DNA of 64,000 nucleotides, taken from the NCBI GenBank assembly GCA_964016885.1, contig OZ024741.1:301444001-301508000 (forward strand). Direction: 5' to 3'. The notes below the pieces were generated by a model. The model saw only the letters and a program-made list of their open reading frames with translations. It was not told the origin of the DNA and ran no database searches. The stretch is from Eledone cirrhosa. Taxonomy: Eukaryota. This document shows, in pieces, positions 3,304-64,000 of this stretch. Position numbers and translations under genes: made by a program. Each line of letters opens with the position of its first letter. Positions within the stretch are counted from its first letter, which is position 1.

Positions 3304-3622
<319 letters not shown>

Positions 3623-7085: not shown

Positions 7086-7143
<58 letters not shown>

Positions 7144-7147
<4 letters not shown>

Positions 7148-7350: not shown

Positions 7351-7370
7351 TATATATATATATATATATA

Positions 7371-13349: not shown

Positions 13350-13535
13350 GATAAATCTACCAAGAGTTTACGGTAGTGTCCAATCCGTATGAAGAACTCA
13401 ATGTATTCCGGATATCATGGAAAGAAGAGATGTAATGAAAATCCACTTTCGGTGAAAGATAAACGGTATACAGAGTCAAGATAAAATATTAAACAAATAA
13501 TGAATAAAACAATTCCTTATATTAAACAAAAAAAG

Positions 13536-13690
13536 TTCATTATTTAACGATCGTTTCTAGGGTATATATGTGTTATAATTGGTATGCATATTCAACAGAT
13601 CTATGTACAAAATTATACAAAATTATACAAATTATCAAGATTAAATATACATACCTAACACATATATACGCCGTCTTCAGAAATAATGAA
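13536..13690 (-). ncRNA. Hammerhead ribozyme with about 116-nt stem II insertion
   Basis: Mirror copy of 22877-23031. Confidence 0.8.
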
Positions 13691-14509
13691 GTATATTTAT
13701 TGATAATAACAACAATTCAAAATATCAGTTCAAAATTGACCAATGAAAACACAAAGGGTTAAAAGCAGTTCGGTGTGTGTATATACATGTAAAATCCTTA
13801 CACATATTTTACAAAAATGTGTGTATAATTTGTATACGCATACTAAAAAGATGGATGCAAACACAAAATTTCAAGGTTAATATCTCTGTAAGCTTAATGC
13901 GCTGATAAGATGTGCATTGATACTTATGGAGTCAAGCATATAAATATATTTTTTCATACTCACACATATCAGTATAATCACACATACATGCGCGTATATG
14001 CCTAAATATACACATAACCACGAACATACAAACACACACACTCCCCCACTCACATTTATATATGTGGATATAAAATCATAAGCACATAGAAATTAAATCA
14101 CTCACATAAAACACTGGCACACACATTTCAAGATCAAGATACAGAAATTAGGTGGGAGGGGGGGAGGAGGGGGAAGGGTCAGTATTCAATTGTCTGAGCA
14201 GACTGCCTAATATAAATGTATCTATAAATTAAGAAAAATAAAAAAATAAAACAATAAAATATAAAATAATATACATACACATACAGATATATATACACAC
14301 ATACATACATGTACGCGCACATAGAGATATTTACGCATACACATATACACACATACATATACAGTCATACACACACATACACTTACACGAACATACACAT
14401 ACACATATAAAAAGATATATATATACACACACACACGCGCAACACATACACACATACACATATATATAAAAAATAGATAATAAAGATATATATCCATATA
14501 TATATATAT

Positions 14510-14578
<69 letters not shown>

Positions 14579-14667
14579 TATACACATACATACACATACA
14601 TCTAAATATACATACACATACATACACACATACATGTACATACATGTACATACATATACGCACATCG

Positions 14668-14713
<46 letters not shown>

Positions 14714-15530
14714 TCACATAGACATATAGATACATACACACACAACTTACATACTCACGTATATATATATATATATAGATGTACCTTCATACATAGAATT
14801 AGATATATAATCATACATACATATGCACCTACTTATACTCATATATATAAATATATACGCTTCCATATATATGTATATACATAAAAAACAATACAACCTC
14901 ACCAAACTCAGACATACAAATAAAAATAATAATAAAAAGGCATATGTATATACATACACACACGCATTAATAGAGATATATATATATATACACATACATA
15001 CACACATATATATATATACACACATATATATACACATACATATATATATACATATACATATATATATATATATACACACACATAGACTCATACATATATA
15101 TATATATATATATATATAAACATATATATCCACACACTCATACCACCATAAATACACATACAAACACCCACATGCATATATATATATATATATCTATATA
15201 CACATACGTATATATATATACATATATATACATATATATATATATATACACACACATAAAAAACAGACATGCACATATATATATATATATATATATTTTA
15301 TTACCCTTATATATACACACATTACATATACATACACAACCTCACTTATACACATATACACATAAGTTATATTATAATAATAAAGAATAATATACATATA
15401 TATATATACATATACATATATATATATATATATATATACATACATACATACACATACATACATACACATAAATATATATATACATAAATACACACATACG
15501 AATAAAGATATATATTCACACATAGACACC

Positions 15531-15567
<37 letters not shown>

Positions 15568-16770
15568 ATATACATATATACACATATATATATATATATA
15601 TATATACACATACACACACACACACACACACAGACACACATACACACTCACATATATATATATATGTGTGTATGTGTGTGTGCGCACATACACATATATA
15701 CACACACACATACAAACACACACAAACACATACATATGCATACGTGCACACACACACACATATATCACATAGATACGAAGATAAACATATAAATAGAGAG
15801 ACATACATATATATACACAACACACATATACATACACATACATACACGCATATACATATACATACATATATACACATATATATATTCCTATATATACAAG
15901 CATACACATACATACACATATATACACATATATACACATATACATACAACACATTCACATACACATACATATATAATGCATATATATACATATATATACA
16001 TACATATGTATGTACAATCATATATACACACACAATCTTACATTCATATTTGCATGCTCATATATGTATTTTTATATTTAGATATAAATACCCAAATCTA
16101 TATAGACACCTACCTACACATATATTCATACATAGACGCTTACAAATACAGATGATAATAGTATGGGGGAAAGGGGGGGTTTGGAGAAGGGGATCAAAGT
16201 AAATATATGTTTCGAGAAACATATAATATTTTCCGTATCTTAATTCAATGTATGTTCTTACATATTTTCAGTGCTAGGAAATACGAAATCTATGCATCTC
16301 AAAATAAATAAGTATACCATTAATCATATGTTAACTAAACCAAAGATAGTCAACATATTGATTTCTAAGGTGTAAATTAGTTAGGTTTATAATATTTGAA
16401 GCAGAATTTTGAAGTCAAACAGTAGTAGATTATTAATTACAGTATAACTAAATTAAAGTTAATAACGTTATGGTATCAATATTAGGAGATGAATTTAGTA
16501 ATAGGGAAAAGAAACCCAAATAAAAATAAAATAAAGTATTACATCGGTAGTAGCATATAAATTATATGTTAACTAAATTAAAAATTATATATTTATTTCA
16601 ATAGTATACGTTAATTAGTATATGTTAATTAGGTATACAATACATAAAGCAGATATTGTATTTCATCAATAGCATAATATAATTATATGCAAATAGAAAT
16701 CAAAATTAATACGCATACATATACATATACATACACATACACATATACATACATATACACACATATATAC

Positions 16771-16801
<31 letters not shown>

Positions 16802-17326
16802 CACATATATACATACATACAGATACACATACACAACACACACATATACATACTCATATACATATACATATCTTTTTCAAAAAATTGCACAGAATATTAA
16901 CTAGGTATATATCCAAAACACATCCCATTCTATGATTACATGACATTCTGCAATTCGTCTGTATAAGGATACTAATTTTAAGCAAATTAAAATTAAAATT
17001 TTTAGGTTGATTAAAACTAAAACCAAATAATAAATATATTTCCAAAATGTATATTAATTAGGTCTATAATACTAAAAATTATTTCTCCGTCATTGGAAAC
17101 ATGATATTATTTTGCTATATTTTATCTGTAAAAGAATTATAATAAAAGGTTTAAATAAATTAAAATTAATCTATAAATTAAATTACTAAGTATATATTAG
17201 TAATATTTAAAGGTTTTTCACAATTTATGATTACATAATATTTTCTCATCTGTAATAAAATATTAATTAAATTAAATTTATAGGTTAACTAACATTTAAA
17301 TTAAATTAATATCTAGAATAATGTTA

Positions 17327-18860
17327 TTAATTAGGTTTATAATATTTAAATGTTTTTTTTAGTTTATGATTACACGATATAATTAATTCCTGTCGTTTAT
17401 TTAATAAGATATCCTTAGACTTCATTATTTCAAATAGTTCTTGGGAACATAATCTACATTCCTTTCTATTATTTTGATAAGGGGTGGCTCTTTTGAGCAC
17501 ACTCCAGGTCAAATCATATTTTATATTCTTATTTTTATAACTATTGATTTTTTCTGCTAGAGATGTTGTATTAGCCAGTGCGGCATTTTTAAAACTATGC
17601 TTGTGGGTATTAAACCTTGTCTTAAAATTGTTAGAGGTAGCTCCTATATATGAGCAAATAGAATCTTTAGTTTTAACATTACATTTATAGACTATGTTGT
17701 TAACAAGACAATTCCCTTTTAATGGGCAGTTTGTTTTGTTTCTACAGTTACATCCTTTCGTTAATTCTGTATTTGAGGAGATATTATTGTTAATTTGATG
17801 TACTGGTGGTATACTTATGGTTTTCTTACATTTATATGCATTATATGCACTTATATTTTGTTTTATGTTATTTGTTGTAGAGTATGAGAATTTAACTGTA
17901 GACCTATTTAAGATTTGATGGTATTTGTGGTTTGGCGGGAAGTTTTTCTCAAGGATATAAAAAAATTTTTTAGCAATATTATCCTTAACTTGTAAATTAA
18001 AAGGAGCATTATACCAAGTAACTCGTCTATTACGGTTTCTATGTTGTTTATTATTTTTATTATTTTTATAGGTTGTATCATGATTTTTACTAGGAGGATT
18101 AATGTTAATGATCTCACCACAACTATTTTTAGTTATATTTGTAGATTTAGGTGTTTTATCTTTTTTATTAGGAGTTTTATTATTAATATTTATTATAGTT
18201 GTATGATGAGTAGTTTTTTGAGGGTTACTATACTTTATATTAGAAGATTTAGTATTTTGGGGTATATTGTGGGTGGCATTTAGGTGTGTACTTTTCATTT
18301 GGTGTTTGTTGGTAATATTATGCTGTATGTTTTCAGTATTTTTAGTAGAAGGTATATACTCTAATCTATTTTTGTGGCCACTTCTATCTAGAGCTTCATT
18401 ATAAAAGGTCGCATTTTTATCAAATACATCTTGGTTAGAAGAAAGGTTAGAAATTCTAAGTGATATATTATATGCAAGGTTTTTAAGGATAGATTTAGGG
18501 TGATTAGATTGTGAGTGTATGTAATGTAAGTTTTGGTTAGGTTTATGGTAAGGTTGGTATATACCCGTAGCTAAATCTAAAGTTATATCTAGGAAATTTA
18601 CTACTTTACTTGTTTTTTCAAAAGTAATATTAAGATTATAATAGTCTTTAAGGAAAGTTCTAATATGTTTTTTGTTTTTTTCGATTTCTGAAAGGCTAAG
18701 GTTGTTAGAAAGAAGAAGACAGTCATCACGATATAAACCACCTTTGAGGTGGGGAAAAGAGGCATTTATGTTGAAAAGGAGAAAGAGGCCCACAAGATCA
18801 GTAATTTGGGCGGAATCGCTTGAACCCATAGTAATATCAAAAAGATTACTGTATGTGTTT
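17327..18860 (-). CDS. 5'-truncated but uninterrupted Naiad RT (C-terminal part) + GIY-YIG endonuclease
   Basis: 518-aa ORF with FDITMGSSDSAQITDLVGLF, GLYRDDCL, VNFLDITLDL, WYNAPF, CNCRNKTNCPLKGNC, VYKC...YIGAT..FKTRFNTH, CRLC and LLNKRQE. The listed start lies in the inverted arm and is not genuine. Confidence 0.9.
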
Positions 18861-18861
18861 T

Positions 18862-19250
18862 GGAATTGTCTTGTTAACAACATAGTCTATAAATGTAATG
18901 TTAAAACTAAAGATTCTATTTGCTCATATATAGGAGCTACCTCTAACAATTTTAAGACAAGGTTTAATACCCACAAGCATAGTTTTAAAAATGCCGCACT
19001 GGCTAATACAACATCTCTAGCAGAAAAAATCAATAGTTATAAAAATAAGAATATAAAATATGATTTGACCTGGAGTGTGCTCAAAAGAGCCACCCCTTAT
19101 CAAAATAATAGAAAGGAATGTAGATTATGTTCCCAAGAACTATTTGAAATAATGAAGTCTAAGGATATCTTATTAAATAAACGACAGGAATTAATTATAT
19201 CGTGTAATCATAAACTAAAAAAAACATTTAAATATTATAAACCTAATTAA
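18862..19250 (+). pseudogene. Inverted duplicate of the GIY-YIG domain (start of inverted arm)
   Basis: Translation is identical to the C-terminus of 17327-18883, from NCLVNNIVYKC to FKYYKPN. Confidence 0.92.
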
Positions 19251-19775
19251 TAACATTATTCTAGATATTAATTTAATTTAAATGTTAGTTAACCTATAAA
19301 TTTAATTTAATTAATATTTTATTACAGATGAGAAAATATTATGTAATCATAAATTGTGAAAAACCTTTAAATATTACTAATATATACTTAGTAATTTAAT
19401 TTATAGATTAATTTTAATTTATTTAAACCTTTTATTATAATTCTTTTACAGATAAAATATAGCAAAATAATATCATGTTTCCAATGACGGAGAAATAATT
19501 TTTAGTATTATAGACCTAATTAATATACATTTTGGAAATATATTTATTATTTGGTTTTAGTTTTAATCAACCTAAAAATTTTAATTTTAATTTGCTTAAA
19601 ATTAGTATCCTTATACAGACGAATTGCAGAATGTCATGTAATCATAGAATGGGATGTGTTTTGGATATATACCTAGTTAATATTCTGTGCAATTTTTTGA
19701 AAAAGATATGTATATGTATATGAGTATGTATATGTGTGTGTTGTGTATGTGTATCTGTATGTATGTATATATGTG

Positions 19776-19818
<43 letters not shown>

Positions 19819-21857
19819 GTGTATATGTATGTATATGTGTATGTGTATGTATATGTATATGTATGCGTATTAATTTTGATTTCTATTTGCATATAATTAT
19901 ATTATGCTATTGATGAAATACAATATCTGCTTTATGTATTGTATACCTAATTAACATATACTAATTAACGTATACTATTGAAATAAATATATAATTTTTA
20001 ATTTAGTTAACATATAATTTATATGCTACTACCGATGTAATACTTTATTTTATTTTTATTTGGGTTTCTTTTCCCTATTACTAAATTCATCTCCTAATAT
20101 TGATACCATAACGTTATTAACTTTAATTTAGTTATACTGTAATTAATAATCTACTACTGTTTGACTTCAAAATTCTGCTTCAAATATTATAAACCTAACT
20201 AATTTACACCTTAGAAATCAATATGTTGACTATCTTTGGTTTAGTTAACATATGATTAATGGTATACTTATTTATTTTGAGATGCATAGATTTCGTATTT
20301 CCTAGCACTGAAAATATGTAAGAACATACATTGAATTAAGATACGGAAAATATTATATGTTTCTCGAAACATATATTTACTTTGATCCCCTTCTCCAAAC
20401 CCCCCCTTTCCCCCATACTATTATCATCTGTATTTGTAAGCGTCTATGTATGAATATATGTGTAGGTAGGTGTCTATATAGATTTGGGTATTTATATCTA
20501 AATATAAAAATACATATATGAGCATGCAAATATGAATGTAAGATTGTGTGTGTATATATGATTGTACATACATATGTATGTATATATATGTATATATATG
20601 CATTATATATGTATGTGTATGTGAATGTGTTGTATGTATATGTGTATATATGTGTATATATGTGTATGTATGTGTATGCTTGTATATATAGGAATATATA
20701 TATGTGTATATATGTATGTATATGTATATGCGTGTATGTATGTGTATGTATATGTGTGTTGTGTATATATATGTATGTCTCTCTATTTATATGTTTATCT
20801 TCGTATCTATGTGATATATGTGTGTGTGTGTGCACGTATGCATATGTATGTGTTTGTGTGTGTTTGTATGTGTGTGTGTATATATGTGTATGTGCGCACA
20901 CACACATACACATATATATATATATATGTGAGTGTGTATGTGTGTCTGTGTGTGTGTGTGTGTGTGTATGTGTATATATATATATATATATATATGTGTA
21001 TATATGTATATAGATATATATATATATATATATATGTAGGTGTCTATGTGTGAATATATATCTTTATTCGTATGTGTGTATTTATGTATGTATATATTTA
21101 TGTGTATGTATGTATGTGTATGTATGTATGTATATATATATATATATATATATGTATATGTATATATATATATGTATATTATTCTTTATTATTATAATAT
21201 AACTTATGTGTATATGTGTATAAGTGAGGTTGTGTATGTATATGTAATGTGTGTATATATAAGGGTAATAAAATATATATATATATATATATATGTGCAT
21301 GTCTGTTTTTTATGTGTGTGTATATATATATATATATGTATATATATGTATATATATATACGTGTGTGTATATAGATATATATATATATATATGCATGTG
21401 GGTGTTTGTATGTGTATTTATGGTGGTATGAGTGTGTGGATATATATGTTTATATATATATATATATATATATATGTATGAGTCTATGTGTGTGTATATA
21501 TATATATATATGTATATGTATATATATATGTATGTGTATATATATGTGTGTATATATATATATATGTGTGTATGTATGTGTATATATATATATATCTCTA
21601 TTAATGCGTGTGTGTATGTATATACATATGCCTTTTTATTATTATTTTTATTTGTATGTCTGAGTTTGGTGAGGTTGTATTGTTTTTTATGTATATACAT
21701 ATATATGGAAGCGTATATATTTATATATATGAGTATAAGTAGGTGCATATGTATGTATGATTATATATCTAATTCTATGTATGAAGGTACATCTATATAT
21801 ATATATATATACGTGAGTATGTAAGTTGTGTGTGTATGTATCTATATGTCTATGTGA

Positions 21858-21903
<46 letters not shown>

Positions 21904-21992
21904 CGATGTGCGTATATGTATGTACATGTATGTACATGTATGTGTGTATGTATGTGTATGTATATTTAGATGTATGTGTATGTATGTGTATA

Positions 21993-22057
<65 letters not shown>

Positions 22058-22876
22058 ATATATATATATATGGATATATATCTTTATTATCTATTTTTTA
22101 TATATATGTGTATGTGTGTATGTGTTGCGCGTGTGTGTGTGTATATATATATCTTTTTATATGTGTATGTGTATGTTCGTGTAAGTGTATGTGTGTGTAT
22201 GACTGTATATGTATGTGTGTATATGTGTATGCGTAAATATCTCTATGTGCGCGTACATGTATGTATGTGTGTATATATATCTGTATGTGTATGTATATTA
22301 TTTTATATTTTATTGTTTTATTTTTTTATTTTTCTTAATTTATAGATACATTTATATTAGGCAGTCTGCTCAGACAATTGAATACTGACCCTTCCCCCTC
22401 CTCCCCCCCTCCCACCTAATTTCTGTATCTTGATCTTGAAATGTGTGTGCCAGTGTTTTATGTGAGTGATTTAATTTCTATGTGCTTATGATTTTATATC
22501 CACATATATAAATGTGAGTGGGGGAGTGTGTGTGTTTGTATGTTCGTGGTTATGTGTATATTTAGGCATATACGCGCATGTATGTGTGATTATACTGATA
22601 TGTGTGAGTATGAAAAAATATATTTATATGCTTGACTCCATAAGTATCAATGCACATCTTATCAGCGCATTAAGCTTACAGAGATATTAACCTTGAAATT
22701 TTGTGTTTGCATCCATCTTTTTAGTATGCGTATACAAATTATACACACATTTTTGTAAAATATGTGTAAGGATTTTACATGTATATACACACACCGAACT
22801 GCTTTTAACCCTTTGTGTTTTCATTGGTCAATTTTGAACTGATATTTTGAATTGTTGTTATTATCAATAAATATAC

Positions 22877-23031
22877 TTCATTATTTCTGAAGACGGCGTA
22901 TATATGTGTTAGGTATGTATATTTAATCTTGATAATTTGTATAATTTTGTATAATTTTGTACATAGATCTGTTGAATATGCATACCAATTATAACACATA
23001 TATACCCTAGAAACGATCGTTAAATAATGAA
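22877..23031 (+). ncRNA. Hammerhead ribozyme with about 116-nt stem II insertion (GUU triplet)
   Basis: ttcattattt-CTGAAGA-cggcgtatatatgtgtta...taacacatatatacccta-GAAAC-gatc-GTT-aaataatgaa. Stem I is a perfect 10 bp and stem III is the palindrome CGATCG. Confidence 0.8.
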
Positions 23032-23077
23032 CTTTTTTTGTTTAATATAAGGAATTGTTTTATTCATTATTTGTTTA

Positions 23078-23352
<275 letters not shown>

Positions 23353-24247: not shown

Positions 24248-24417
24248 TGGAGGGTCGGATGCCATCCTTTGCATCATAGAGTTACGGCCCTTTGCGGTCT
24301 GAGTTCAAATCCTGCCGAAGTTAACTTTGCCTTTCATTCTTATGGGGTCGATAAAATAAAATACCAGTAATGCACTGGTATAATTGCCGGCCTTGTGCCA
24401 AAAGTAGAAACAATTAT
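24248..24417 (+). mobile_element. Deu/Nin-type tRNA SINE
   Basis: GAGTTCAAATCC...CTTTGCCTTTCATTCTTATGGGGTCGATAAAAT...GTAGAAACAATT. Confidence 0.85.
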
Positions 24418-24993
24418 TACTCTCTCATACTTTAACGAAACTAATTTGCAGGTCTTTGAGTAAAACATTTAGCAAGTATAAACCCACAATAAATAGTTCA
24501 TTAACAATCTCTTGATCATACGCGTACCATCACCAGAACATTATTGCACGTAGATCACAAAATACATAATTTCAAACATTTCAATACAATGAAAATGAAG
24601 AAAGTGAAATTGAGGAAATTATTTCTCAATGCTGAATGTGAATAATTAAGCAATGTAAATAAAATTGTGAATAAAAATTAAGATTTTTAATATATTTCGA
24701 CTTTAGCATTGTTTCTAATGTAAAATTTTGAAACACATTTTGGCATTTTTTCTACTCAATTTAGCATAACATTTTTATTTTATATTAGCATCACCATTTT
24801 TTTGGATAGTTAGGTCTCGCAGAGCATACCACAACGACAAATCGGCATATTCATGAAGCCAATTATATGTATATATGTGTGTGTGTGTTAAATCCGAATA
24901 TCGATTAAAGTTGTTTATCATCTTTTTATTAAATTTACTGGGATTTTCATATATTCTGGCATGTTTACATGCCTATATAGTAGATATGTGTAC

Positions 24994-27060: not shown

Positions 27061-28044
27061 TAATGATGGAACTTGTAAAGTACTGGTATCGAGTTAAGCG
27101 ACTTTCCCCTACCCGAAAATTGCTGGCCTTGTGCCTATGTTAGAAACAATTGAAATGATGAGGAGAATAAGAGAAATAAAGACTATAACAATGGAATTGC
27201 GGTGATAATACCAAGGATTATAATTCTTTTAATAACAATGGTAATGGTGACAATCACAATAATGACACAGAGGTGCATTGTTACTGTAATTCCGTTATGA
27301 TAAAAACATCAACTGCAACAGCAATGAAAATAAGCCCAACTTCAACAAAAGTAACAGCGAATACAATAGCACTAACAAACCAACTTATCTAACTCTTCTG
27401 AATAAGAACAAATGCAAAACAATAATCGGGAAAGAAAAGAACGTGAAAATGATAAAATATTGATAATTATAAAATTCTCCCTTGATAATCTGACTTGAAA
27501 TTTTAGAAATTAAAATATCGAAATTGAAATGTTTTGTGTAAAACGAACTGAAAGCTATCATCTACTTGATAATCAGTATTCTTCTAAGGTGTTTTTAAAC
27601 AAATTCAATGTATTGATCAAACTGTATTTATGATTAAATTCTGAAAAATGTAATATTCATATCAACAAGCGTACAAAAGCATTAGGTCTAGACGAATTTA
27701 CTTTATTATTCCGGTTTTGTTTTAAGAAGTGGACTAAAGATAAAATATAACAAAGATAAATTAATATAGAAACACAAAGACTAATCTAAAATATGATAAC
27801 GAAAAGTATTGTTAAATTTTTTCGTTGAGAATCGTGGTATTTCTTTTCACTGCGCATGTGTCGTAGAGAAAGTAGATCTGCTGAAAATCAAAATACATTC
27901 ACTTTTATGAATCTGAAATGTTTTCACTATTCTGTTGAAATTAAGATGCATAGTTTACTTCGTTGTTTTTTTTGTTTTTTTTTTGTTTTTTTTTACTTAT
28001 TATGTCTGAATGAAATAGATGTCATTATTGTTGCTTTTATAAGG

Positions 28045-28266
28045 GCAGTTGATTTGCAGTATCAGTAGAGCGTCGGACCCCATGATTTGCGACATAGAGT
28101 CACAGCCCTTTACGTTCTGATTACAAATCCCGTCGAGGTTAGCTTTACTTTTCATCCTTGTGAGGTCGATAAAATAAAGTACTGGAAATGCACTGGAGTC
28201 GATTTAATCGACTTTCCCTTCCCATTCAAATTGCTGGCCTTGTGCCTAAAGTAGAAACAATTATTA
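28045..28266 (+). mobile_element. Deu/Nin-type tRNA SINE (diverged)
   Basis: ctttcatccttgtgaggtcgataaaataaagtac...ttgctggccttgtgcctaaagtagaaacaatt. Confidence 0.8.
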
Positions 28267-30682: not shown

Positions 30683-30800
30683 TGTGTGTGTGTGTGTGTG
30701 TGTAGAAATTTCGTATTTCTAAAGGAGTACGGTTTTAGGAAGCCGTAGCTATGCAAACACCGGGGGGCTAACGCCTCTGGTGGTGTCCAGCAGAAGCAAG

Positions 30801-30855
30801 GGGGACAACCGTCTATGCATTTCAGGCTTGACTGGCCTTCGCCAGGACGATCCCT
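30801..30855 (-). ncRNA. Minimal hammerhead (core mutated CTGGCGA)
   Basis: gggatcgtc-CTGGCGA-aggc-cagtcaa-gcct-GAAAT-gc-ATA-gacggttgtccc. Confidence 0.65.
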
Positions 30856-31154
30856 CCCACCGCTTGCGACTGCTAGACTTGAAAACAGCCGAGAATATGT
30901 AGTTTTCTCGTCTGTGTAAATGAGGTGATTAATCTCATTTGCATATGAAGCTGCATAAGTTGGCTCAATTTATCATAGAAAAGAAATAAGATATCGCTTC
31001 AAGCATAGCTTTATACAATATGTTTAGAAATTTCGTATACGTTGAGCCAACTTATGCAGCTTGATATGCAAATGCGATTAATCACCTCATTTACACAGAC
31101 GAGAAAACTATATATTCTCGGCTGTTTTCAAGTCCAGCAGTCGCAAGAGGTGGG

Positions 31155-31208
31155 GGGATCCTCTGACGAAGGCCAATCAAGCCTGAAATGCATAGACGGT
31201 TGTCCCCC
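31155..31208 (+). ncRNA. Minimal hammerhead (AUA triplet, palindromic ATGCAT stem III)
   Basis: gatcct-CTGACGA-aggc-caatcaa-gcct-GAAAT-gc-ATA-gacggtt. The core is intact here, while stem I is intact in the other arm. Confidence 0.7.
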
Positions 31209-31346
31209 TTGCTTCTGCTGGACACCAACAGAGGGCGTTAGCCCCTCGGTGTTTGCATAGCTACGGCTTCCGAAAACCGTATTTCTTTAGAAATACGAAA
31301 TTTCTATACATATTGTATAAAGCAATGCTTGAAGCGAAATCTTATC

Positions 31347-38024: not shown

Positions 38025-38345
<321 letters not shown>

Positions 38346-38389
38346 ATATATATATATATATATATATATAACCAATTACAACACCTGAC

Positions 38390-39466: not shown

Positions 39467-39715
39467 ATTAGAAATATAAGCTTTCACCGTATTTTTGACT
39501 AAAGAAATGTTTAGCCTGATAGTGGGTTTTAGAACCGTCAGAGAAAAATAGAAAAAGATGAGTATTGATGTACGTCAATACTCATCTTTTTCCATTTTTC
39601 TCTGAGGGTTCTAAACCCCACTATCAGGCTAAATATTTCTTTAGTCAAAAATACGGTGAGATCTTATATTTCTAATTTCAAACTCGCTCAGTGTTTCAAA
39701 ACATACTTACTTGAA
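39467..39715. repeat. About 100-bp inverted repeat plus short tail, probable miniature pLTR pair
   Basis: 39467-39568 is inverted at 39575-39676 with a 6-nt spacer. There is a roughly 40-bp extension, then (TA)n. Confidence 0.7.
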
Positions 39716-39720
39716 TATAT

Positions 39721-39793
<73 letters not shown>

Positions 39794-39884
39794 CGAAGGA
39801 AATGTGGTAAGGAACCAGGTGGACCATAACGCACCAAAGTACTCAATACTTAGGGTAGTAGAGTGGGTAATAGGAACGAGTAGG

Positions 39885-39980
39885 ACCCCGACGGCTGAGC
39901 TCAAGCCGTTTCGACGGCTAATTCTGGACTAAATGAAAATGTTTATCCTGGTATATGAATAGCCGAGCTTCTCAGGGGGT
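39885..39980 (-). ncRNA. Hammerhead variant (core CUGAGAA, long stem II loop, GUC)
   Basis: acccc-CTGAGAA-gctcggcta...tagccgtc-GAAA-cggc-ttgagctca-gcc-GTC-ggggt. Confidence 0.7.
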
Positions 39981-42585
39981 AATTCCATATATGGTAAAAG
40001 TGATTGTCACAAGGATTGGTCAAAAGTTTGTTGTTGAGACACATAATTCTATCATAGCAATTTGTGGAAGGAAGGGGTAGCTGAACCTGCCAGTAGAAGA
40101 AAGAGGGAGAGGGGGTGGAGGAAACCCAGTCGTGTGTTGATAGTGCCAACTACAGCAGGGCAGGAGGTCAAGGAAGTATACTAGGGAGGGGAGGGGGGAA
40201 ATCGAAACAATAAGTAAAACAATATGGGGTAAATATATAGAAAAATACCGAGAATGTTAAAAAACAATTAAATATAAAAAATAAAAAAACATTTCTGGTT
40301 ACTATTCCCTAAGGACAGCCATCAAGTCTCTCACTGGTACTGCTAGACTATAGAAAAGTTTACTAGGTGGGACGGAATTATAATGAGACCCTTTTAAGAG
40401 GTAGTAGTAATCAACCGAGTATATCTTACGGTGACGGGTCAACAAGTGGGGGGCCAAAATACTAAAGAAACTACCACGAAATAATAATTCAGAGTCCCGA
40501 GACTAATACGAAATAATTGTTTCTACCCTAGGCACAAGGCCAGCAACCACCCAGTGCAAAAAATAAACTAATACGAAATAATAATTCAGAATCTCGAAAA
40601 AGAAAACTAATACTATCTCTAAGGGTGCCGCTACGATACAAAAATTCTAGTCAAACTACATAAATGCCCGTACGAAGTATATGAAAAGTTTGATACGGAA
40701 AATGAATTCAGAATCCCCCCCCCCCAAAAAAAAAATACTGATATACGAGAAATTAAAGCAAAGATACCACTAAGAAATGTAGAAAGCACGGGAAAGGGGC
40801 AGCCATCGGATAAGAAAGCAAGTATCCGGGGTCTATAACATCTGCTATAAAAAGCGGAGTCGGCCAATTCTATCATAGAATAGGGGAAGGGGCTGGAGGT
40901 ACTGAGGCTACAAAGGACCGAGGGGCTGCCTCGGGTGGGCGAGAAAGTGAAAAAGACGACGACAAAGAAAGAGGACTGGGGTGGAAGGACTAGGAAGGGA
41001 TGGGGGAAGAAGGAAATATAAAGGAAGCGATAAAAAGATATAAAAGAAGATCTTACGTCTACCTTTTCAAGCAGGGGTTACCCATTACAAAGTCGGCAAG
41101 TGGGGTGTTACAGCCCTTGTCTACCCCCCCCCCCCCTCCCCCGGGTCATTATGGGGTTTGAGGGCGGGGTAAATCCTACGCAATCTGTGTTTGCATGCAG
41201 TTACCAGTTCGTCTTTCTTGTTTAGGAGTTGGTCCGTCGAAAACGGCATTTGTAAAGTTTCCTCCGAGCATAAATTGCACGGACGGCGTCCTCCCGTATA
41301 AGAGTTGGCTCTGGACATGAAGCTCCAAGTGAGATCATAGGTAATATTGTTATCCTTGAGGTCCCAGATGTGGCCCGAAAGTGTGGTGGCGTGACGCCGG
41401 GCCGGGTTTCGGAAGGTATGTCTGTGTTGGTATAGCCGGGTCTTGAAGTCACATGCGGTTAATCCTATATAAGCTTTGTTGGAGGTGTCCGTCCTCACGT
41501 TGCACTGCTATGTCACATTACGATCTCTGCATCTGTTGTCGAGGGGGCAAATGGATCCATCAGGACAGTTGCACCTCCTGGTCGGCTCTCCGCTGCTATT
41601 TAGGTTATTTCTTCCATAGGGGTTGAGTTTTTTGTTGTTAGAGGAGACGATGTTTTGTGCAAAGTTTGGTGTGGTGCTGTAGGAGAGTTTGATGGTATTT
41701 TTGTTAATTATGTTGTGGTAGCGGTGTTGTAGTGGGAAGTGTTTTTCGATGAGCCTAAAGAAGATTTTCCCGATAGTTGTCACCTCGGCGTTGTAGGGAG
41801 GATTGAACCATGTTACATTGCGCGAGCGGCGGTGGGGGTGGGGGATTCTTAATTAATTTTCCGTATCAAATTTTTCATATACTTCGTACGAGCATTTATG
41901 TAGTTTGCACTAGAATTTTTGTATCGTAGCGGCACCCTTAGAGATAGTATTAGTTTTCTTTTTCGGGATTCTGAATTATTATTTCGTATTAGTTTATTTT
42001 TTGCACTGGGTGGTTGCTGGCCTTGTGCCTAGGGTAGAAACAATTAATTCGTATTAGTCTCGGGACTCTGAATTATTATTTCGTGGTAGTTTCTTTAGTA
42101 TTCCCCCCCCCCCCACACTTGTTGACCCGTCACCGTAAGATATACTCGGTTGATTACTACTACCTCTTAAAAGGGTCTCATTATAATTCCATCACACCTA
42201 GTAAACTTTTCTATAGTCTAGCAGTACCAGTAAGAGACTTGATGGCTGTCCTTAGGGAATAGTAACCAGAAATGGTTTTTTTCTTTTTATATTTAATTGT
42301 TTTTTTAACATTCTCGGTATTTTTCTATATATTTACCCCATATTGTTTTACTTATTGTTTCGATTTCCCCCCTCCCCCTCCCTAGTATACTTCCTTGACC
42401 TCCTGCCCTGCTGTAGTTGGCACTATCAACGCACGACTGGGTTTCCTCCACCCCCTCTCCCTCTTTCTTCTACTGGCAGGTTCAGCTACCCCTTCCTTCC
42501 ACAAATTGCCATCATAGAATTATGTGTCTCAACAACAAACCTTTGACCAATCTTTGTGACAATCACTTTTACCATATATGGAATT

Positions 42586-42681
42586 ACCCTCTGAGAAGCT
42601 TGGCTATTCATATACCAGGATAAACATTTTCATTTAGTCCAGAATTAGCCGTCGAAACGGCTTGAGCTCAGCCGTCGGGGT
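42586..42681 (+). ncRNA. Hammerhead variant (core CUGAGAA), inverted-arm copy
   Basis: accct-CTGAGAA-gcttggcta...tagccgtc-GAAA-cggc...gcc-GTC-ggggt. Confidence 0.68.
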
Positions 42682-42717
42682 CCTACTCGTTCCTATATAT
42701 ATATATATATATATATA

Positions 42718-43665: not shown

Positions 43666-43683
43666 TATGTATGTATATATATA

Positions 43684-43889
43684 TAGGAAAAGAGTCAGGA
43701 CCTCAACGGCTGAGCTCCGGCCTTTTCGACACTAGATCCGAACAGTTCTGATTTAACTGTCGAAACAGTCGCCGGAGCTCAGCCGACGGGGTCCTGACTC
43801 GTTTCCTATTACCCACTCTACTACCCTAAGTATCGATCGAGTACTCTGGTGCGTTATAGTACACCTGTTTTCTTACCACTCTTTCTTTG

Positions 43890-43891
<2 letters not shown>
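43684..43891 (+). mobile_element. Miniature inverted pLTR pair, diverged subfamily of the main Naiad family
   Basis: gagtcaggacc..cggctgagctccggc is inverted at 43770-43808. Tail reads ttacccactctactaccctaagtat. Flanked by (TA)n. Confidence 0.78.
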
Positions 43892-47437: not shown

Positions 47438-47627
47438 TGTGGGTGAATTGGCAGTATCGGTAGAGGGTTGGACGCCATGCTTTCTAGCATAGTTACGTCC
47501 CTTTACATTCTGAGTTCAAATCCCGCCGAGGTTAACTCTGCCTTTCATCCTTACGGGGTCGATAAAATAAAGTACCAGTAATGTACTGGGTAATTGCTGG
47601 CCTTGTGCCTAAAGTAGAAACAATTAT
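47438..47627 (+). mobile_element. Full-length Deu/Nin-type tRNA SINE
   Basis: A-box-like TGGCAGTATCGG, B box GAGTTCAAATCC, conserved core and tail. Confidence 0.88.
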
Positions 47628-48443
47628 GTGGTCTTCTCCATTAAATTGTGCGAACCAACAGCTGGTCTGAGAGCTGAAGAGATCAAGGGATGTGTGTTAT
47701 CTTGTCTCGTTCATTTACTTCCTTTATTTATTTATTCCTCTCACTTCTGCAAGCCAACACACTTGTAGCCACTGTTTTCTGTCCTTTCGGTAAATTTTAC
47801 CCGACGCTATCATTGACGGCATTTTGCTGCTTTAATATTCTTGCGTTGCGTTCTTCTCATTATTCTATGAATACAGCCGCGCTCCATCTCGGTCTTCGAG
47901 ACAACATTGTTGATACAATACTTTTTTTTCAGTATTTCAGTAACAATAATTGTTTCTACTTTTGGCAGAAGGCCAGCAACTTTAATAGACTGCAGTGCAT
48001 TACTGACACTTTATTTTTTCAACCCAGGCAAAGCTAACTTCGAGAGAGATTTCAACTTAAAAAGATAAGGGCCGTAACTATATGCCACAAAGCATATTTT
48101 CCGACATCCTACAAAAACCTTCCAATCCAAAAACTTCAATAACAATAAGGAGTAGATGTCATCGCATATTTCATTGAAAAAATCAACTATGGACGCTAAA
48201 GAAGTAACTGACAATAAAATGTATGACTCACTGTTTTTCTATATTTTCACTCCTGAAATCCATATAATAATCAAATCACGATTTCATTGGAAAAGATAAT
48301 TCAGTTGGTCTGTCGATACATTCTACGTGCAATGAATAAAGATGTGGAAGAAGAAAAATCTTACAGCAATAGCGAAAAGGAAAAAGGAAATTATATATAT
48401 GTGTGTGTGTGTGCGCGTGATACATGTGTATATAAATATATAT

Positions 48444-48629: not shown

Positions 48630-49170
48630 ATATGTTCGTATGGATTCACCAAACATTATTATAATGTTCGGTGTGTTTGTAAACAAACATCCCGTATAAA
48701 GCCGCGGTGTCTAGCAACCACCGTTGCTCGTTTGTTCAACACTGACAAAGGAACGCTGTACTAGTTCCAAGCTTGTTAGCTATCGTCAGCAACGTATACC
48801 TTCCTGCCAGATTGTTGAACGTCCGAAATTATATACTTTCCTTATGCATATTAACGGCTAAATAGTCCAATTTGCATATCGAATGGGTTAATCGGCCGGG
48901 TGCGCCGAAAACGATAAACGGAAAAAATGAAACGCTTATCGTTTTCGGTGCACCCGGCCGATTAACCCACTCGATATGCAAATTGGGCTACTCAGCCGTT
49001 AATATGCATAACGAAAGTATATACTTTCAGACGTTCAATCATCTGGCAGGAAGGTATACGTTGCTTACGATAGCTAATAAGCTTGAAACTAGTACAGCGT
49101 TCCTTTGTCAGTGTTTTACAAACGAGCAACGGTGGTTGCTAGACACTGCGTCGGGCAGTAACACACTACA
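48630..49170. mobile_element. Solo inverted pLTR pair with hammerheads at 48753-48795 (-) and 49058-49100 (+)
   Basis: Arms 48704-48918 and 48936-49150. Consensus is acgttg-CTGACGA-tagct-aaca-agctt-GAAAC-ta-GTA-cagcgt, and each arm carries a different core mutation. Confidence 0.82.
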
Positions 49171-49699
49171 ATATATATATATATATATAATTAATTCGAA
49201 TATGTGTATATAATTAATTTGAGTATGTATTGGTTAATTACCGACACTTCAGTATGCTCGGTAGAGCACTGAATAGCCAAAACAGCCATGGCTGAATTCC
49301 TTATTACAATTTCTAACATATTAAACACATATATACATATATTTATGTATATTTTCGTGTTGAAATATGTTTGTTTACGAGCCTTCTAGACCACACTGCA
49401 GATAGTTTTAATCAATTCCAATTGAAATTAAATGGAGGGATAAATGTTGAATTGAAATATTGAAGCAAATATTGAGGCAAATATTGGAACAATTGTTTAT
49501 ATTTGACACTTGTAAAGAATAAGTTAAACGATGCACGAAATCATGGAATACACACTAACAACTACGATGCAGACTACCGTACTGAATATGCTCTGAAGGC
49601 ATCAACAAATGCACCATCGCATTAATCTAATGTTCCTGTCAACATCTTTAGAAAGAGATGGAATAAAAACCTTCTGACAAAGCAAGTGCAGGAGCATAA

Positions 49700-49890
49700 A
49701 TAATTGTTTCTACTTTAGGCACAAGGCCAGCAATTACCCAGTGTATTACTGGTACTTTATTTTATCGACCCTGTAAGGATGAAAGGCAAAGTCAACCTCG
49801 GCGGGATTTGAACTCAGATCGTAAAGGGACGTAACTATGCTGGAAAGCATGGCGTCCGACTCTCTACCGATACTGCCAATCCACCGCCCT
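49700..49890 (-). mobile_element. Full-length Deu/Nin-type SINE with target-site duplication
   Basis: Family motifs are present, and tgcaggagcataaataat is repeated on both sides. Confidence 0.9.
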
Positions 49891-50129
49891 TTATGCAGGA
49901 GCATAAATAATGATGATTATTGTGTGTTTTTAAGAATCATTATTTATGCTCCTGCACTTGCTTTGTTCTGATTCAGCAAAGAAAATACAATGCTACAATA
50001 GAATATGGATTATTGGTCTTCTTCGCCCACTTATTCCGTAGAGTGTCGTTGGGGCAGAGTCCTCAAACACTCCTTCTAGTTGGTCATATCAGAAGCAACC
50101 GCTTCCAACTGATCAGGCCAAGGGACACC

Positions 50130-51080: not shown

Positions 51081-51496
51081 TTAGTTTTTTTATGTTGATG
51101 ATGGGAAAGAAGATATGGCATTTCTTAGGGCTTACTTTAATTCGTCTGTTAGGATCCGAATTTCTTGGTGTTGTATTAAAGTAGCTGGGCAGCTACTTCT
51201 AGAGAATAATGTGAGGGTATGATGGTGCTAGTGCTTGTTATGTCTTAGACTGAGAAAGAATGCCAGCACCCACATATTTTGCTGTCGCTCTGAGACTGGG
51301 GAGGGAGATGGAGAAAAGAAAATATGACTAAAGGGTTGCTACAGTAAAATGGCATTGTACCAGGATATTGAGAACAGATACATATGTTTACAGAGCAGTC
51401 AAATAACCCCAACACACTGATGGGTTATGTGGTAGTCTGAAACCAAGTAACAGATGAACTGCATATGGAGTTGTATATATATAGGGAAAAAGTATG

Positions 51497-51592
51497 ACCC
51501 CGACGGCAGAGCTCAAGCCGTTTCGACGGCTATTTCTGGACTAAATTAGAATTTTTAGCCTGGTGAATAAATAGCCGAACTTGTCAAGGGGA
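51497..51592 (-). ncRNA. Hammerhead with U3-A8 core (UUGACAA)
   Basis: tcccc-TTGACAA-gttcggctattt...aaatagccgtc-GAAA-cggc-ttgagctct-gcc-GTC-ggggt. Confidence 0.75.
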
Positions 51593-53420
51593 TACTTCCT
51601 TATATGGGAAGATTGTAGTTGTCAAGAGGATTGGTTAAAATTCGTTGTAAACACAAATAAGTCTATCATGGCATTTGGTGGGAGGTAGGGTGGCTGAACT
51701 TGCCTGTAGAACAATAGGGGAGTGAGTGGAGCGGTCAAGCGTTGAAAGTGATATGTATACAGCAGATTCTAAGGATAGTGTATGAAGTGGAGGAGGGAGG
51801 TTATAGAATAGGTAAATCGAATGAGAGTAGGAGACAATAAAAGATAATAGAAAGAAATAAAAAATATATATAAAATTAGATAGTGAGAAATGAATTTAAA
51901 AAATCATAATGCTATCTTACAATTACAGGTTAATAAGTTGAGAATAGAAAAAACTTGTAGAAATTGAGTAGTAACAAAACTAAAGGGGTTTAACACAACT
52001 GCTATAAGTAGTTAGTAAAACGTATTCGGCCAACAAAAAGCTCAACCCCTATGGAAGAAATAACCTAGACATCAGTGGAGAGCCGACCTGGAGGTGTAAC
52101 TGTCCTGATAGATCCATGTTCCCCCTCAACAACAGATGCCGAGAACCAGTGCAACGTGAGGACGGACACCTCCAACAAAGCTTATATAGGATTAACCGCT
52201 TGTGACTTCAAGACCCGGCTCTACCAACACCGCCATTCTTTCCGAAACCCGGTCCAGCGACATGCCACTACACTTTCGAGCCACATCTGTGACCTCACAG
52301 ACAATAATATAACCTACAATCTCGCTTGGAGCTTACTGTCCAGAGCTAACTCTTACACGGGAGGACGCCGTCCGTGTAACTTATGCTCGGAGGAAACATT
52401 ACAAATGCTGTTTTCGAAGGACCAACTCCTAAACAAGAAAGACGAACTGGTAACCGCTACAAACACAGATTGCGTAGGACTTACCTCGCCCTCAAACACC
52501 ATAACGACCCGGGTGGGTAGACAAGGGCTGATACCCCCCACTTGCCGATTTTGTAAGGGGAAACCCCTACTTACATAGGTAGACGTACCTTTTTTCTTTT
52601 CCTCTACGTTTCCTTCTCCCCCCCCCCCCCCCATCTCATCCTATCAGATCCTTCCACCCCCGATCTTCCTCGTCTGTTTTTCACATTTCGCCTACCCCGA
52701 TGCAGCTCATCGGTCCTCTGTAGCCTCGGTACCCCCACCCCAGTAATTTTAAGATAGAACTGGCTGATTACGCTTTATTTATAGCAGATGTGTTAGACCC
52801 CTCTAATTTCTTCTTTTTTGTTACTACTCCATTTCTACAATCTCTAAATTTCTTATTTAGTATTATTTTTTTCTCAACTTATTAACCTGTAATGTAAGAT
52901 AGCATTGGCTGATTACGCTTTACTATTTATAGCAGCTGTGCTAGACCCCCTTAAAGCTTGCTTTAAAAAATGTTTTCACTACTTACTACAATCTCTTACT
53001 TAGTATTCTTTCCCATTCTCTACATATACTTTTCTATAGCTTAGCAATCCCTACTTATAGCAGCTGTTTATAGACTCTACTGTTTCTGTTTTTTTATTCA
53101 TTTCTCACTATCAACATTTTTTTATATATTTATTATTTTTTTATTCTTATTTTTATTTTACTTCCTTTCGACTTACCTATTCTTTCAACTCCCTCCTCCT
53201 TTTCTCCAGTACAATTTTTCGACTTTTCATACTTTATCCTTAGAATCTGCCGTATAGATTTCACTTTCAACACCTGACTGGTTTTCTTCACTCCCTCTTT
53301 GTTATACCGGCAAGTTCAGCCACCCCTACCTCCCACCAAATGCCATGTTAGATTTATTTGTCTTTATAACAAAGTTTAACCAATCCTCTTGACAATTACT
53401 ATCTTCCCATATAAGGAAGT

Positions 53421-53516
53421 ACCCCTTGATAAGTTTGGCTATTTATTTACCAGGCTAAAAATTCTTACTTAGTCCAGAAATAGCCGTCGAAACGGCTTGA
53501 GCTCTGCCGTCGGGGT
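53421..53516 (+). ncRNA. Hammerhead with U3-A8 core (UUGAUAA)
   Basis: acccc-TTGATAA-gtttggctattt...aaatagccgtc-GAAA-cggc-ttgagctct-gcc-GTC-ggggt. Confidence 0.75.
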
Positions 53517-53796
53517 CATACATTTTCCTATTACCCACTCTACTACCCTAAGTATTGAGTACTCTGGTGCGTTATGGTCCATCTAGTTCCTTACCACAAC
53601 TCCTTCGTTATATATATATTATATATATATATATATTATATATATATATATTATATATACATATATATTATATATACATATATATTATATATATATATAT
53701 ATTATATATATATATTATATATATATCTCTATATATATATATTATGCGCATACGCACACACACACATATATATAAATATACTCACACATATGTACG

Positions 53797-53825
<29 letters not shown>

Positions 53826-55339: not shown

Positions 55340-55485
55340 GATTGGCTAAACTGAGCCTTTATGGTCTGAGTTTAAATCCTGCCAGGGTTAACTTTGCCTT
55401 TCATCTTTACGGGGTCGATAAAATAGAGTACCAGTAATGCACTGGGATAATTGCTGGCCTTGTGCCAAAAGAAGAAATAATTATT
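55340..55485 (+). mobile_element. Deu/Nin-type SINE (internally deleted)
   Basis: gagtttaaatcctgccagggttaactttgcctttcatc...ttgctggccttgtgccaaaag. Confidence 0.8.
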
Positions 55486-55513
55486 ATTAATGTTCGATAT
55501 AACCCATACGTAC

Positions 55514-58185: not shown

Positions 58186-59136
58186 GACTTTGATGATTTC
58201 TTTTGAATGAGACAGTTCAAGTCACCACCCATAGCATGATTATTGATATTCCTTCGTACATATTCCTTTATTACTCTTGAAATATGTTTCACCAATATAT
58301 AGTATAGTTCAATAGTCAATCAAGGATCTTCAGCGAAGGAAATTGAGCTATCTGAACTTACACGCATGAGATACAAAGCAAGGACTAACGGAAGACGCAC
58401 GTGGTTTGTGGAAAACCGGCAGAGCAGAACCGGTGAGTGACAGACTATATATATATATATATATATAAGGGAACAAAGAATCAGTGTTGCATCATATACA
58501 TATTTAATTACATATTACATATTTTTCACTTGTGATCAGCTTGAGGAATGATCGATTAATGATCGATCCTGACACTGGAATCAGAGGCTCCGCAGACATG
58601 TGTTAACATGTAGACTCGTGTCTAAGAATGGTTGGATATTTAAGTCCGAGATTATCATGTCTTGCAGACACCACCGGGAATGCACTTTTTCCGCGTTTAA
58701 CTTTCCCAGATAGGAGCTTAACAAGTGCTTGGTGCATGTAGACAACGGGAGTCAGGCCCACCCGTGCACTGGGGTGGCCCTGCGTTTTGTTGAACACCTG
58801 AACCAGCCTTTGAGCCCACTCTGCATGTACAACTTAGCACATATTAGAAGGCATACATACGCAAGGACATTCCCATGTACGTACTACGTACTCGTACATA
58901 AAATCTAACACAACGTAAAATGTATGTGTATAGGCACACGCACACATACGCAATCACACCATATGGGCACATACCGAACTTGATCATACATCCTTGCTTT
59001 CGGAAAATTCCTTTCCATGGTCGGCTATGTCCTCTCTACAGAGAACCGTCAGCCAGATTCTATTTGAAATCAGCCTAGACTTTCACTACTCCTGTCGCTT
59101 CTCCAACTTATCAATCTATATTATTTTTTTTAAAAC

Positions 59137-59464
59137 TGAGTTCAAATCCCGCCGAGGTTAACTTTGCCTTTCATCCTTACTGGGTCGATAAAATAAATGA
59201 CCAGTAATGCACTGGGTAATTGCTGGCCTTGTGTCAAAAGTAGAAACAATTATTTTTTTTAACTGGAAAGGGCGGTGGATTGGCAATATCGGTAGAGGGT
59301 CGGACGCCATGCTTTGCAGCAAAGAGTTACGGCCCTTTATGGTCTGAGTTCAAATCCCGCCGAGGTTAACTTTGCCTTTCATCCTTACGGGGGTTGATAA
59401 AATAAAGTACCAGTAATAAACTGTGATAACTGCTGACCTTGTGCCAAAAGTAGAAACAATTATT
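59137..59464 (+). mobile_element. Two tandem Deu/Nin-type SINEs (truncated 59137-59253; full 59270-59464)
   Basis: Family motifs are present, and attattttt(t)aa(aa)ctg occurs before, between and after the copies. Confidence 0.88.
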
Positions 59465-59694
59465 TTTTTAAAAACTGTATTATGTTTTCATTCTAACACA
59501 GTATTATGTTTGTATGATTTCTTCTACACTTATATCTGTGTGTGTGTGTGTAAGTATATATGTGTGTATGTATATGTGCTTGTATGTATGTGTGTACGTG
59601 CGTGTGAGTGTGTGTGTATGTATGTGGCTATGTGTCTATATAGGTGTGACTGTATGTGTTTGTGTATGTGCAGGAGACAGAGTGTGTGTGCATA

Positions 59695-62286: not shown

Positions 62287-62533
62287 CAGTCTTGGCGCAA
62301 AATCAATTTTTTATTCACATGACCTCTACCGACCAATCAAAATTGTTTTGACCACAAGAATTTTTGCAAACACCAAGTAGCGCTGGAGCCACTTTTTTAA
62401 CATAAAAACAGTCTTGGCGCAAAATCAATTTTTTACATTCACATGACCTCTACCGACCAATCAAAATTGTTTTGACCACAAGAATTTTTGCAACACCAAA
62501 GTAGCGCTGGAGCCACTTTTTTAACATAAAACA
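62287..62533. repeat. About 122-bp tandem duplication
   Basis: cagtcttggcgcaaaatcaattttt...ggagccacttttttaacataaaa occurs twice. Confidence 0.9.
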
Positions 62534-62857: not shown

Positions 62858-62861
<4 letters not shown>

Positions 62862-64000
62862 AAAATGTATGACCTCGACGGCAGAGCTCAAGCAGTTTCT
62901 ACAGCTATTTCTGGATTAAATTAGAATTTTTAGCCTGGTGAATAAATAGCCGAACTTATCAAGGGGGTACTTCCTTATATGGGAAGATTGTAGTTGTCAA
63001 GAGGATTGGTTAAAATTTGTTGTAAACACAAATAAGTCCATCATGGCATTTGGTGGGAGGTAGGGTGGCTGTACTTGCCTGTAGAACAATAGGGGAGTGA
63101 GTGGAACGGTCAAGCATTGAAAGTGATATGTATCCAGCAGATTCTAAGGATAGTGTATGAAATGGAGGAGGGAGGTTATAGAATAGGTAATTCGAATGAG
63201 AGTAGGAGACAATAAAAGATAATAGAAAGAAATAAAAAAATATATAAAATATAAAAATAGATAGTGAGAAATGAATAAAAAAAATCACAATGCTAACTTA
63301 CAATTACAGGTTAATAAGTTGAGAATCGAAAAAACTTGTAGAAATTGAGTAGTAACAAAACTGATACAAAATTAAAGGGATCGAACACATCTGCTATAAG
63401 TAGTTAGTAAAACATAATCAGCCAATTCTATCTTAAAATTACAGGGGTGGGGGAACTGATGCTACAGAGGCCCGAAGGGCTGCATCGGGGTAGGCGAAAG
63501 GGGAAAAGAAGACGAGGAAGAAAATAAGGGGTGGAAGGAAGTGATAGGATGAGACAGGGGGAAGAAGACAAAGAAGTAAAGAAAGTGATACATCTACCTA
63601 TGTAAGCTGGGGTTTCCCCTAACTTATTCGGCAAGTGGGGCGGTATGCGCCCTTGTCTACCCACCCGAGTCGTTATGGTGTTTGAGAGCAAGGTAAATCC
63701 TACGCAATCTTTTTTGCATGCGGTTACCAGTTCGTCTTTTTTGTTTAGGAGTTGGTCCTTCGAAAACATCATTTGTAATGTTTCCTCCGAACATAAGTTA
63801 CAGGGACGGCGTCCATCCGTGTAAAAGTTAACTCTGGACTGAAAGCTCCAAGTGAGATTGTAGGTTATATTATCATCTTGGAGGTCCCAGATGTGGCCCA
63901 AAAGTGTAGTGGCATGTCGCCGGAGTGGGTTTCGGAAAGTATACTCGGTGTTGGTAGAGCCAGGTCTTGAAGTCACACGCGGTTAATCCTATATAAGCTT
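62858..64000 (-). mobile_element. Naiad PLE (GIY-YIG + tail-less pLTR with U3-A8 hammerhead at 62872-62968), continuing beyond the window
   Basis: FRNPLRRHATTL, CNLCSEE and LLNKKDEL motifs, and ccccc-TTGATAA-gttcggcta. Ends at (TA)n. Confidence 0.9.

Follow-up and report, generated by a model that had tools for sequence, protein, structure and literature searches.

A Penelope-like element of Eledone cirrhosa with arms of two different subfamilies

A Penelope-like element (PLE) of Eledone cirrhosa carries two pLTR arms that belong to different subfamilies. This copy, E1, occupies positions 51482–53609 of the window (the whole 64-kb stretch of DNA analysed here); it is 5′-truncated, is set in (TA)n and bears marks of the Hydra clade. 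Its inverted left arm, L, is of subfamily B and its forward right arm, R, is of subfamily A, and two different templates are thus represented in one structure. In the assembled sequence this mismatch is genuine, and far larger than chance would give. The reading that we favour, to which we give an even chance, is a single integration in (TA)n, in which the two cut ends were each extended on a different RNA (A on the right, B on the left) and the products were then joined.

Layout of the element and its relatives in the window

The surrounding window consists of microsatellite-rich eukaryotic DNA. E1 is flanked by TA on both sides: on the left by a target remnant of (TA)5, read directly from the sequence at 51474–51483, and on the right by an equally evident TA-rich microsatellite at 53610–53825. 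Between them lie the tail-less inverted arm L (51482–52033, minus strand), assigned to subfamily B by its identities to R and to a second copy, E2, by a tree of arms and by a contig of sequencing run X1; a decayed and 5′-truncated ORF end (52031–52505, plus strand) with a CxCX5C linker and a GIY-YIG endonuclease; the 3′ UTR/pLTR (52506–53530, plus strand), which is of type A from about 52761 onward; and a tail of 79 nt (53531–53609, plus strand), present on the forward arm only. The tail end of the element falls at 53609, and the tail-less end at 53530 is mirrored at 51482. The right pLTR contains an old internal duplication with its second unit starting at about 52886, most of which is missing from subfamily B.

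A BLAST comparison of 51470–53620 with the window returned five further copies of the family, E2–E6. E3 (39790–42696, minus strand) is the control copy with matched arms, which are identical at 833 of 857 positions and have a long subtype-specific block in common. E4 (7143–7359), E5 (38147–38353) and E6 (43676–43890), all located by BLAST, have short arms; those of E4 agree at 61 of 62 positions, and those of E5 (50/60) and E6 (53/60) both have shared type marks but are too short for a firm call. The other two-armed copies, four of the five in the window, are matched, and E1 is the exception. The 79-nt tail recurs in E3–E6, and every one of the five tailed copies has a tail-less inverted arm, all of these arms starting at one site. 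TA repeats adjoin all five tailed ends and five of the six tail-less ends, the left end of E5 adjoining a GA repeat.

E2 (62858–64000, minus strand), recognised by BLAST and in the core alignment, is a tail-less copy of subfamily B that leaves the window at its end. The first-pass annotation had treated 62858–63420 as a separate element, a description that probably does not hold: the start of E2 is the tail-less end, as in all the inverted arms found here, and the copy is cut off at 64000, so that it too is probably an inverted arm. The window contains two subfamily B copies (51482–52033 and 62858–64000), each a tail-less end, and no tailed B copy; at n = 2 this is possibly chance, and B could serve mainly as an arm template. 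Derived changes in inverted and tailed arms number 3 and 1, respectively, in the E3 core (4 ambiguous) and 15 and 7 in the outer parts of five copies, counts that are too small to use. Exact-pattern scans of metagenome contigs, prokaryote genomes and viral contigs yielded no more copies of the family.

Several other repeats populate the window. There are six unrelated inverted-repeat structures with arms 89–98% alike (4865–5088/6860–7083, 24590–24807/25702–25919, 43999–44255/44543–44799, 30703–31306, 39467–39676 and 48703–49150), a tandem duplication of ~122 nt at 97% identity (62287–62407 and 62409–62531) and a dispersed repeat of ~180 nt at no fewer than, and thus at least, eight loci (3410–3581, 24250–24418, 28022–28265, 47442–47627, 47930–48129, 49698–49892, 55356–55488 and 59136–59467).

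Mismatch between the two arms

In the core alignment, L is identical to E2 at 393 of 414 columns (94.9%) and to its own partner R at 352 of 409 (86.1%), and E2 is identical to R at 348 of 408. The corresponding gapped BLAST values are 91.7% over 577 nt for L and E2, and 81.1% over 454 nt for L and R. Among 68 variable sites in the three-way comparison, 48 unite L with E2, 11 unite L with R, 8 unite E2 with R and one differs in all three; the support of 48 against 11 sites has p = 1e-6. Three blocks of R are missing from both L and E2, of 20 nt (about 52846–52865), 177 nt (about 52908–53084) and 25 nt (about 53199–53223). A tree of five arms groups L and E2 with support of 100/100 and rejects L and R as sisters (p-AU 0.0011). 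In the same core, the arms of the control copy E3 agree at 388 of 396 columns (Fisher p = 9e-11 against E1).

These results bear out the first-pass annotation in its main observations, namely that the copy at 62858 resembles the left arm more than the arm's own partner does, that the partners are not each other's closest relatives and that they differ by a block of some 20 nt and a longer internal segment, to which the 25-nt block can be added. Its wording that the match is 'almost base for base' was a little strong for these identities, and its span of about 52790–53530 for the right arm began too late, the homology to L starting at about 52761.

From that point on, the forward arm of E1 differs from both L and E2. 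L is of B type throughout, from the diagnostic site farthest out (51545) as far as the junction; the outer ~60 nt of the arms are uninformative, A and B types being near-identical there (64/66, 97%). A third template at a seam near 52908 was considered and rejected. The duplicated unit begins at about 52886 and L and E2 retain its first ~25 nt, so that subfamily B merely lacks 177 nt of an older duplication.

The inner junction

Comparison with the continuations of E2 and E3 places the junction of arm and body at 52031–52033, a correction of the earlier position of about 52020. The two parts meet in a 3-nt overlap, CAA, which is common to both and comes without target DNA or filler. The junction of E3 is likewise without TA, and the X1 contig has a loose end at 52031 with the family's normal upstream letters. 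Signs of two insertions, in the form of (TA)n or filler, are absent from this point, and a TSD is unreadable in (TA)n.

Two independent insertions at one TA tract would mean that an A copy was in place first and that a tail-less B copy subsequently inserted against its 5′ end in head-to-head orientation, with loss of the target DNA and of whatever arm the A copy originally had. Such targeting is in the nature of the family, every end of which seen here lies at (TA)n apart from the left end of E5; B is abundant in the contigs; and a faint sign that the left arm is younger comes from the near-fixed differences from the family, of which L seems to have fewer than the body (5 against 12 per ~550 nt, among the 40 rows listed of 406). 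However, the junction holds neither TA nor a remnant, no proven solo tail-less copy is present in the window (E2 being incomplete), and all five tailed copies have an arm, so that the A arm of E1 would have had to be lost. We regard this history as very improbable.

Read data and the assembly

Reads and contigs of four of the eight listed runs (X1, X3, X4 and X6) were compared with 51200–53610; X3 and X4 stem from one sample, which is possibly the source of the assembly. Contigs of X3 and X4 cover 51200–51503 with one other letter, at depths of 7.4 and 7.3, and extend from the left flank 21 nt into the arm. They confirm the insertion at this place, but not its subfamily, as they end inside sequence common to A and B. 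An X1 contig matches 51606–51895 (290 nt of L) with two other letters and one gap. Summed contig depth, which gives no copy number, is 20,000–48,000 in B-specific bins against 100–670 in A-specific bins, and the raw reads of X6 point the same way, with B over A. At body sites such as 52089, 52233, 52324 and 53348 no X3 or X4 contig has the letter of the window, which is neither support nor refutation since contigs drop rare variants. An allele with an empty site did not appear in the comparison with 51200–53610.

The 15 joints listed of 451 in X3 and X4 contigs are all from short two-armed copies, with the forward part starting at 53471–53477 or close by (53481, 53485). This stretch lies inside helix II of the putative ribozyme, and E4 and E5 start there too; it may be a hot spot of 5′ truncation, perhaps reflecting RNA structure.

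Among the 24 pieces listed of 52,169, no contig crosses the inner junction (52033), a result that would fit an assembly error in which two loci were joined within the ORF or the ribozyme, where A and B are alike. Runs X3–X5 moreover contain only 0.49–0.54 of sampled words, and a 4-kb inverted duplication elsewhere in the window, at 99.7–100% identity, could itself be an artefact. Yet an overlap of 3 nt is not what an assembler would use to join sequences, changes specific to this copy occur all along the body, and the left flank junction is present in independent contigs; a mis-join is thus very unlikely. The duplication in question (4.2 kb; 13481–17715 and 18862–23086, with a 1146-nt spacer and the identity given above in its unique parts) does not belong to the PLE family, and is either an artefact of the assembly or a fold-back duplication of very recent origin.

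The body of E1 and possible recombination after insertion

Relative to E3, the ORF of E1 has deletions of 14 nt and 1 nt. In 322 ORF columns, E1 has 10 changes of its own (8 non-synonymous), E2 has 19 (7 synonymous) and E3 has 23 (16 synonymous). Judged on its letters, the ORF of E1 carries almost no lineage signal and cannot be typed as A or B, which leaves room for a later crossover within 52031–52760. The higher difference between E1 and E2 in the ORF (31/322 against 21/414, p = 0.02) was tried as a means of typing the body and was rejected, being mostly non-synonymous decay.

A matched B/B or A/A copy could have been altered after its insertion in one of three ways: crossover in the ORF with a neighbouring copy, with deletion of the interval; gene conversion of the right arm, reaching from ORF to ribozyme; or break repair of the left arm from a B donor. 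Exchanges of this kind would find ~730 nt of close homology in the untyped ORF, outer 66 nt that are 97% alike, a dense family with six copies in 64 kb and a B type that is far commoner in the contigs. Against this, replacement of the left arm would have taken place without homology at the inner end, since the B type reaches the junction; replacement of the right arm would have to bridge 14% divergence and a 177-nt indel, with the scarcer type as donor; and two events are required. Nor do the ages of the parts differ detectably: own changes number 8/380 in L, at most 11/380 in R (an upper bound) and 10/322 in the ORF (p = 0.64 and 0.48, with low power). Recombination is unlikely on this evidence, although it carries more weight than any other alternative.

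The end branch of E2 (type B) is 0.040 and that of the type A arm R is 0.023. Given the longer branch of E2, B existed when the A copy E1 was made, if rates are equal, and the two subfamilies probably overlapped in time.

A proposed single integration on two templates

The layout of E1 is exactly that of all five tailed copies in the window, and this speaks for a single integration. In the proposed sequence of events, both ends of a cut in (TA)n would be primed in the course of one event; the right end would be extended on A RNA from the tail site, and the left end on B RNA from the tail-less site, or by way of a template switch within the ORF, from A RNA to B RNA; the two products would then be end-joined by microhomology at the 3-nt overlap. 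To bring the RNAs together, no more would be needed than a protein dimer or a pair of RNPs at the same break. The available text of PMC11167929 describes a PLE protein that in vitro cleaves both strands and extends them, with two internal start sites, one at each limit of the tail; dimerisation of the protein is predicted there. For LINE-1, nine two-RNA insertions of both orientations are described in the accessible part of PMC11702581, and opposite-orientation insertions from two RNAs also appear in that of PMC13174262.

The earlier claim that the two arms were templated by two RNA molecules is upheld as regards the templates, because the subfamilies differ, and the use of two RNA molecules within one integration is the likeliest single reading; one RNA with two unlike pLTRs, or an exchange in the ORF at a later time, would yield an identical sequence. 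A general two-RNA (dimer) mechanism, which the same annotation had drawn from it, cannot be established from one example, and four of the five two-armed copies in the window are matched.

The same ends and junction are predicted if E1 was made from one RNA with two unlike pLTRs. This RNA would come from a mixed tandem, with a B pLTR upstream of an A element, and the upstream pLTR would serve as template for the tail-less arm, the downstream pLTR for the tailed arm. PLEs are found in partial tandems and have been proposed to insert into their own pLTR (PMC11167929, in its available text), and this origin would also explain why arms usually match. However, it requires an earlier mixing event as well as long upstream copies, the arms measuring 860 nt in E3 and probably >1140 nt in E2, and none of the six window copies is a mixed tandem; we consider it rather unlikely.

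The hammerhead-like motif

The pLTR contains a hammerhead-like motif in which a five-pair helix III bears GAGCTC in its loop. In the left arm, the motif lies at 51497–51593 (minus strand), with a U3–A8 core, a long helix II and loop III GAGCTC at 51509–51514 (single fold, z −2.58). In the right arm, it lies at 53421–53516 (plus strand), with the core at 53426–53432, GAAA at 53489–53492, the palindrome at 53499–53504 and a predicted cut after 53511 (single fold, z −1.22). Core letters and helices I–III are present in the single folds of both E1 arms, but not in those of E2 and E3. The hammerhead helices did not reappear in a consensus fold of five copies, in which 0 of 25 pairs were compensatory, and a search of Rfam gave no hammerhead hits.

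The GAGCTC palindrome is retained in nine of ten pattern-matched arms and in an eleventh arm, and the neighbouring loop letters vary by subtype. It is identical in subfamilies A and B, and with helix III the same in both, mixed A–B pairs would be possible. Co-folding of helix III hairpins (A–A, B–B, A–B and A–E3, −28 to −35 kcal/mol) was rejected as evidence of pairing, as such values are generic to palindromic hairpins. The GAGCUC loop resembles the dimer loops of retroviral genomes. Pairing of two RNAs through the hammerhead loop would be conceivable, but we hold it to be unlikely. PLE hammerheads with palindromic loop 3 and U3–A8 cores are described in the available text of PMC4209133, where dimers are proposed for self-cleavage and not for reverse transcription.

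A bolder proposal would extend this pairing to the family as a whole. Inverted pLTRs would normally be made by a two-RNA particle, composed of a tail-site RNA and a tail-less-site RNA and held together by the invariant GAGCUC loop (two letters, the six-letter palindrome and one letter). If so, arms would mostly match as few source loci would be expressed per cell, and E1 would be a heterodimer. This proposal strikes us as distinctly unlikely.

Clade membership

The CxCX5C linker reads CNCPDGSIC in E3, where it aligns with homologues, and CNCPDRSMF in E1, where the last cysteine has decayed. The CCHH cysteine pair between GIY and YIG is absent: E3 has ~12 residues there with one non-conserved C, and all four homologues are without C. 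CxxC and CxH motifs surround a conserved E and N (CNLC, E190, N204 and CKH), and are invariant columns in the homologue alignment. Twelve database proteins match at 35–44%, and the three longer of the four aligned homologues (37–44% identity over the EN part) have RWR/RWK and DKT motifs. Pfam returned no families for two window proteins, and likewise none for four further proteins. No RT is left in the window copies, and membership of the Hydra clade therefore rests on the endonuclease end. According to the available text of PMC8557442, PLEs of this clade have a CxCX5C linker, no CCHH, CxxC/CxH motifs and insertions almost always in (TA)n. An assignment to Neptune or Nematis PLEs was rejected on motifs, neither a CX2-5CxxC linker nor CCHH being found.

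Comparison with known systems

Among PLEs, inverted pLTRs and tails are the usual state of affairs, and LINE-1 is already known to undergo twin priming on two RNAs. Alone, E1 is a curiosity of a known kind. As a mosaic it is genuine and unambiguous, and it gives good reason to look across the whole genome, but it is one case, for which rival explanations are still live. An arm from another subfamily would come neither from self-priming nor from re-copying of the same pLTR. The family appears to be very abundant, with several well-separated subfamilies, and the share of mismatched insertions together with their pairing pattern would offer a direct and cheap test between one RNA and two.

The closest likeness is to the Hydra-clade PLEs (Craig et al., 2021, PMC8557442), with the same GIY-YIG/CxCX5C end and (TA)n target and, as described there for PLEs in general, a tail on one end and an inverted 5′-truncated arm. 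E1 differs from them in its tail of 79 nt, against 30–40 nt, and in its hammerhead-like motif with a U3–A8 core and a long helix II. The available text of that study makes no mention of arms from different subfamilies, and leaves the formation of inverted arms to in vitro studies still to come. A PLE insertion whose arms differ in subfamily was not found in the literature searched, in so far as that literature, with few subscription papers among it, was accessible.

Pen2a_Av of Adineta vaga likewise has a forward tailed copy with an adjacent tail-less inverted pLTR (PMC3846280, available text). Its inversions are explained there by self-priming at junction palindromes, whereas the junction of E1 is a 3-nt overlap; self-priming copies the element's own sequence, and so cannot yield an arm of a different subfamily if E1 arose in one event. 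PAc, a Poseidon element of Anolis, shares with E1 the two internal start sites that bound the tail, an AT-rich target, the extension of both strands and a predicted dimer, but belongs to a different clade, and inverted arms and the number of RNAs are not addressed in the accessible text (PMC11167929).

Finally, LINE-1 twin priming (PMC11702581; PMC13174262, both in their available text) likewise gives two parts in opposite orientation, which are attributed to the extension of opposite DNA ends on separate templates and to joining by microhomology or through untemplated letters. In LINE-1, priming of the second end happens only occasionally, mostly with an unrelated RNA as partner. In the family of E1, by contrast, both products start at fixed internal pLTR sites of one family, and the inverted arm is the rule (5/5).
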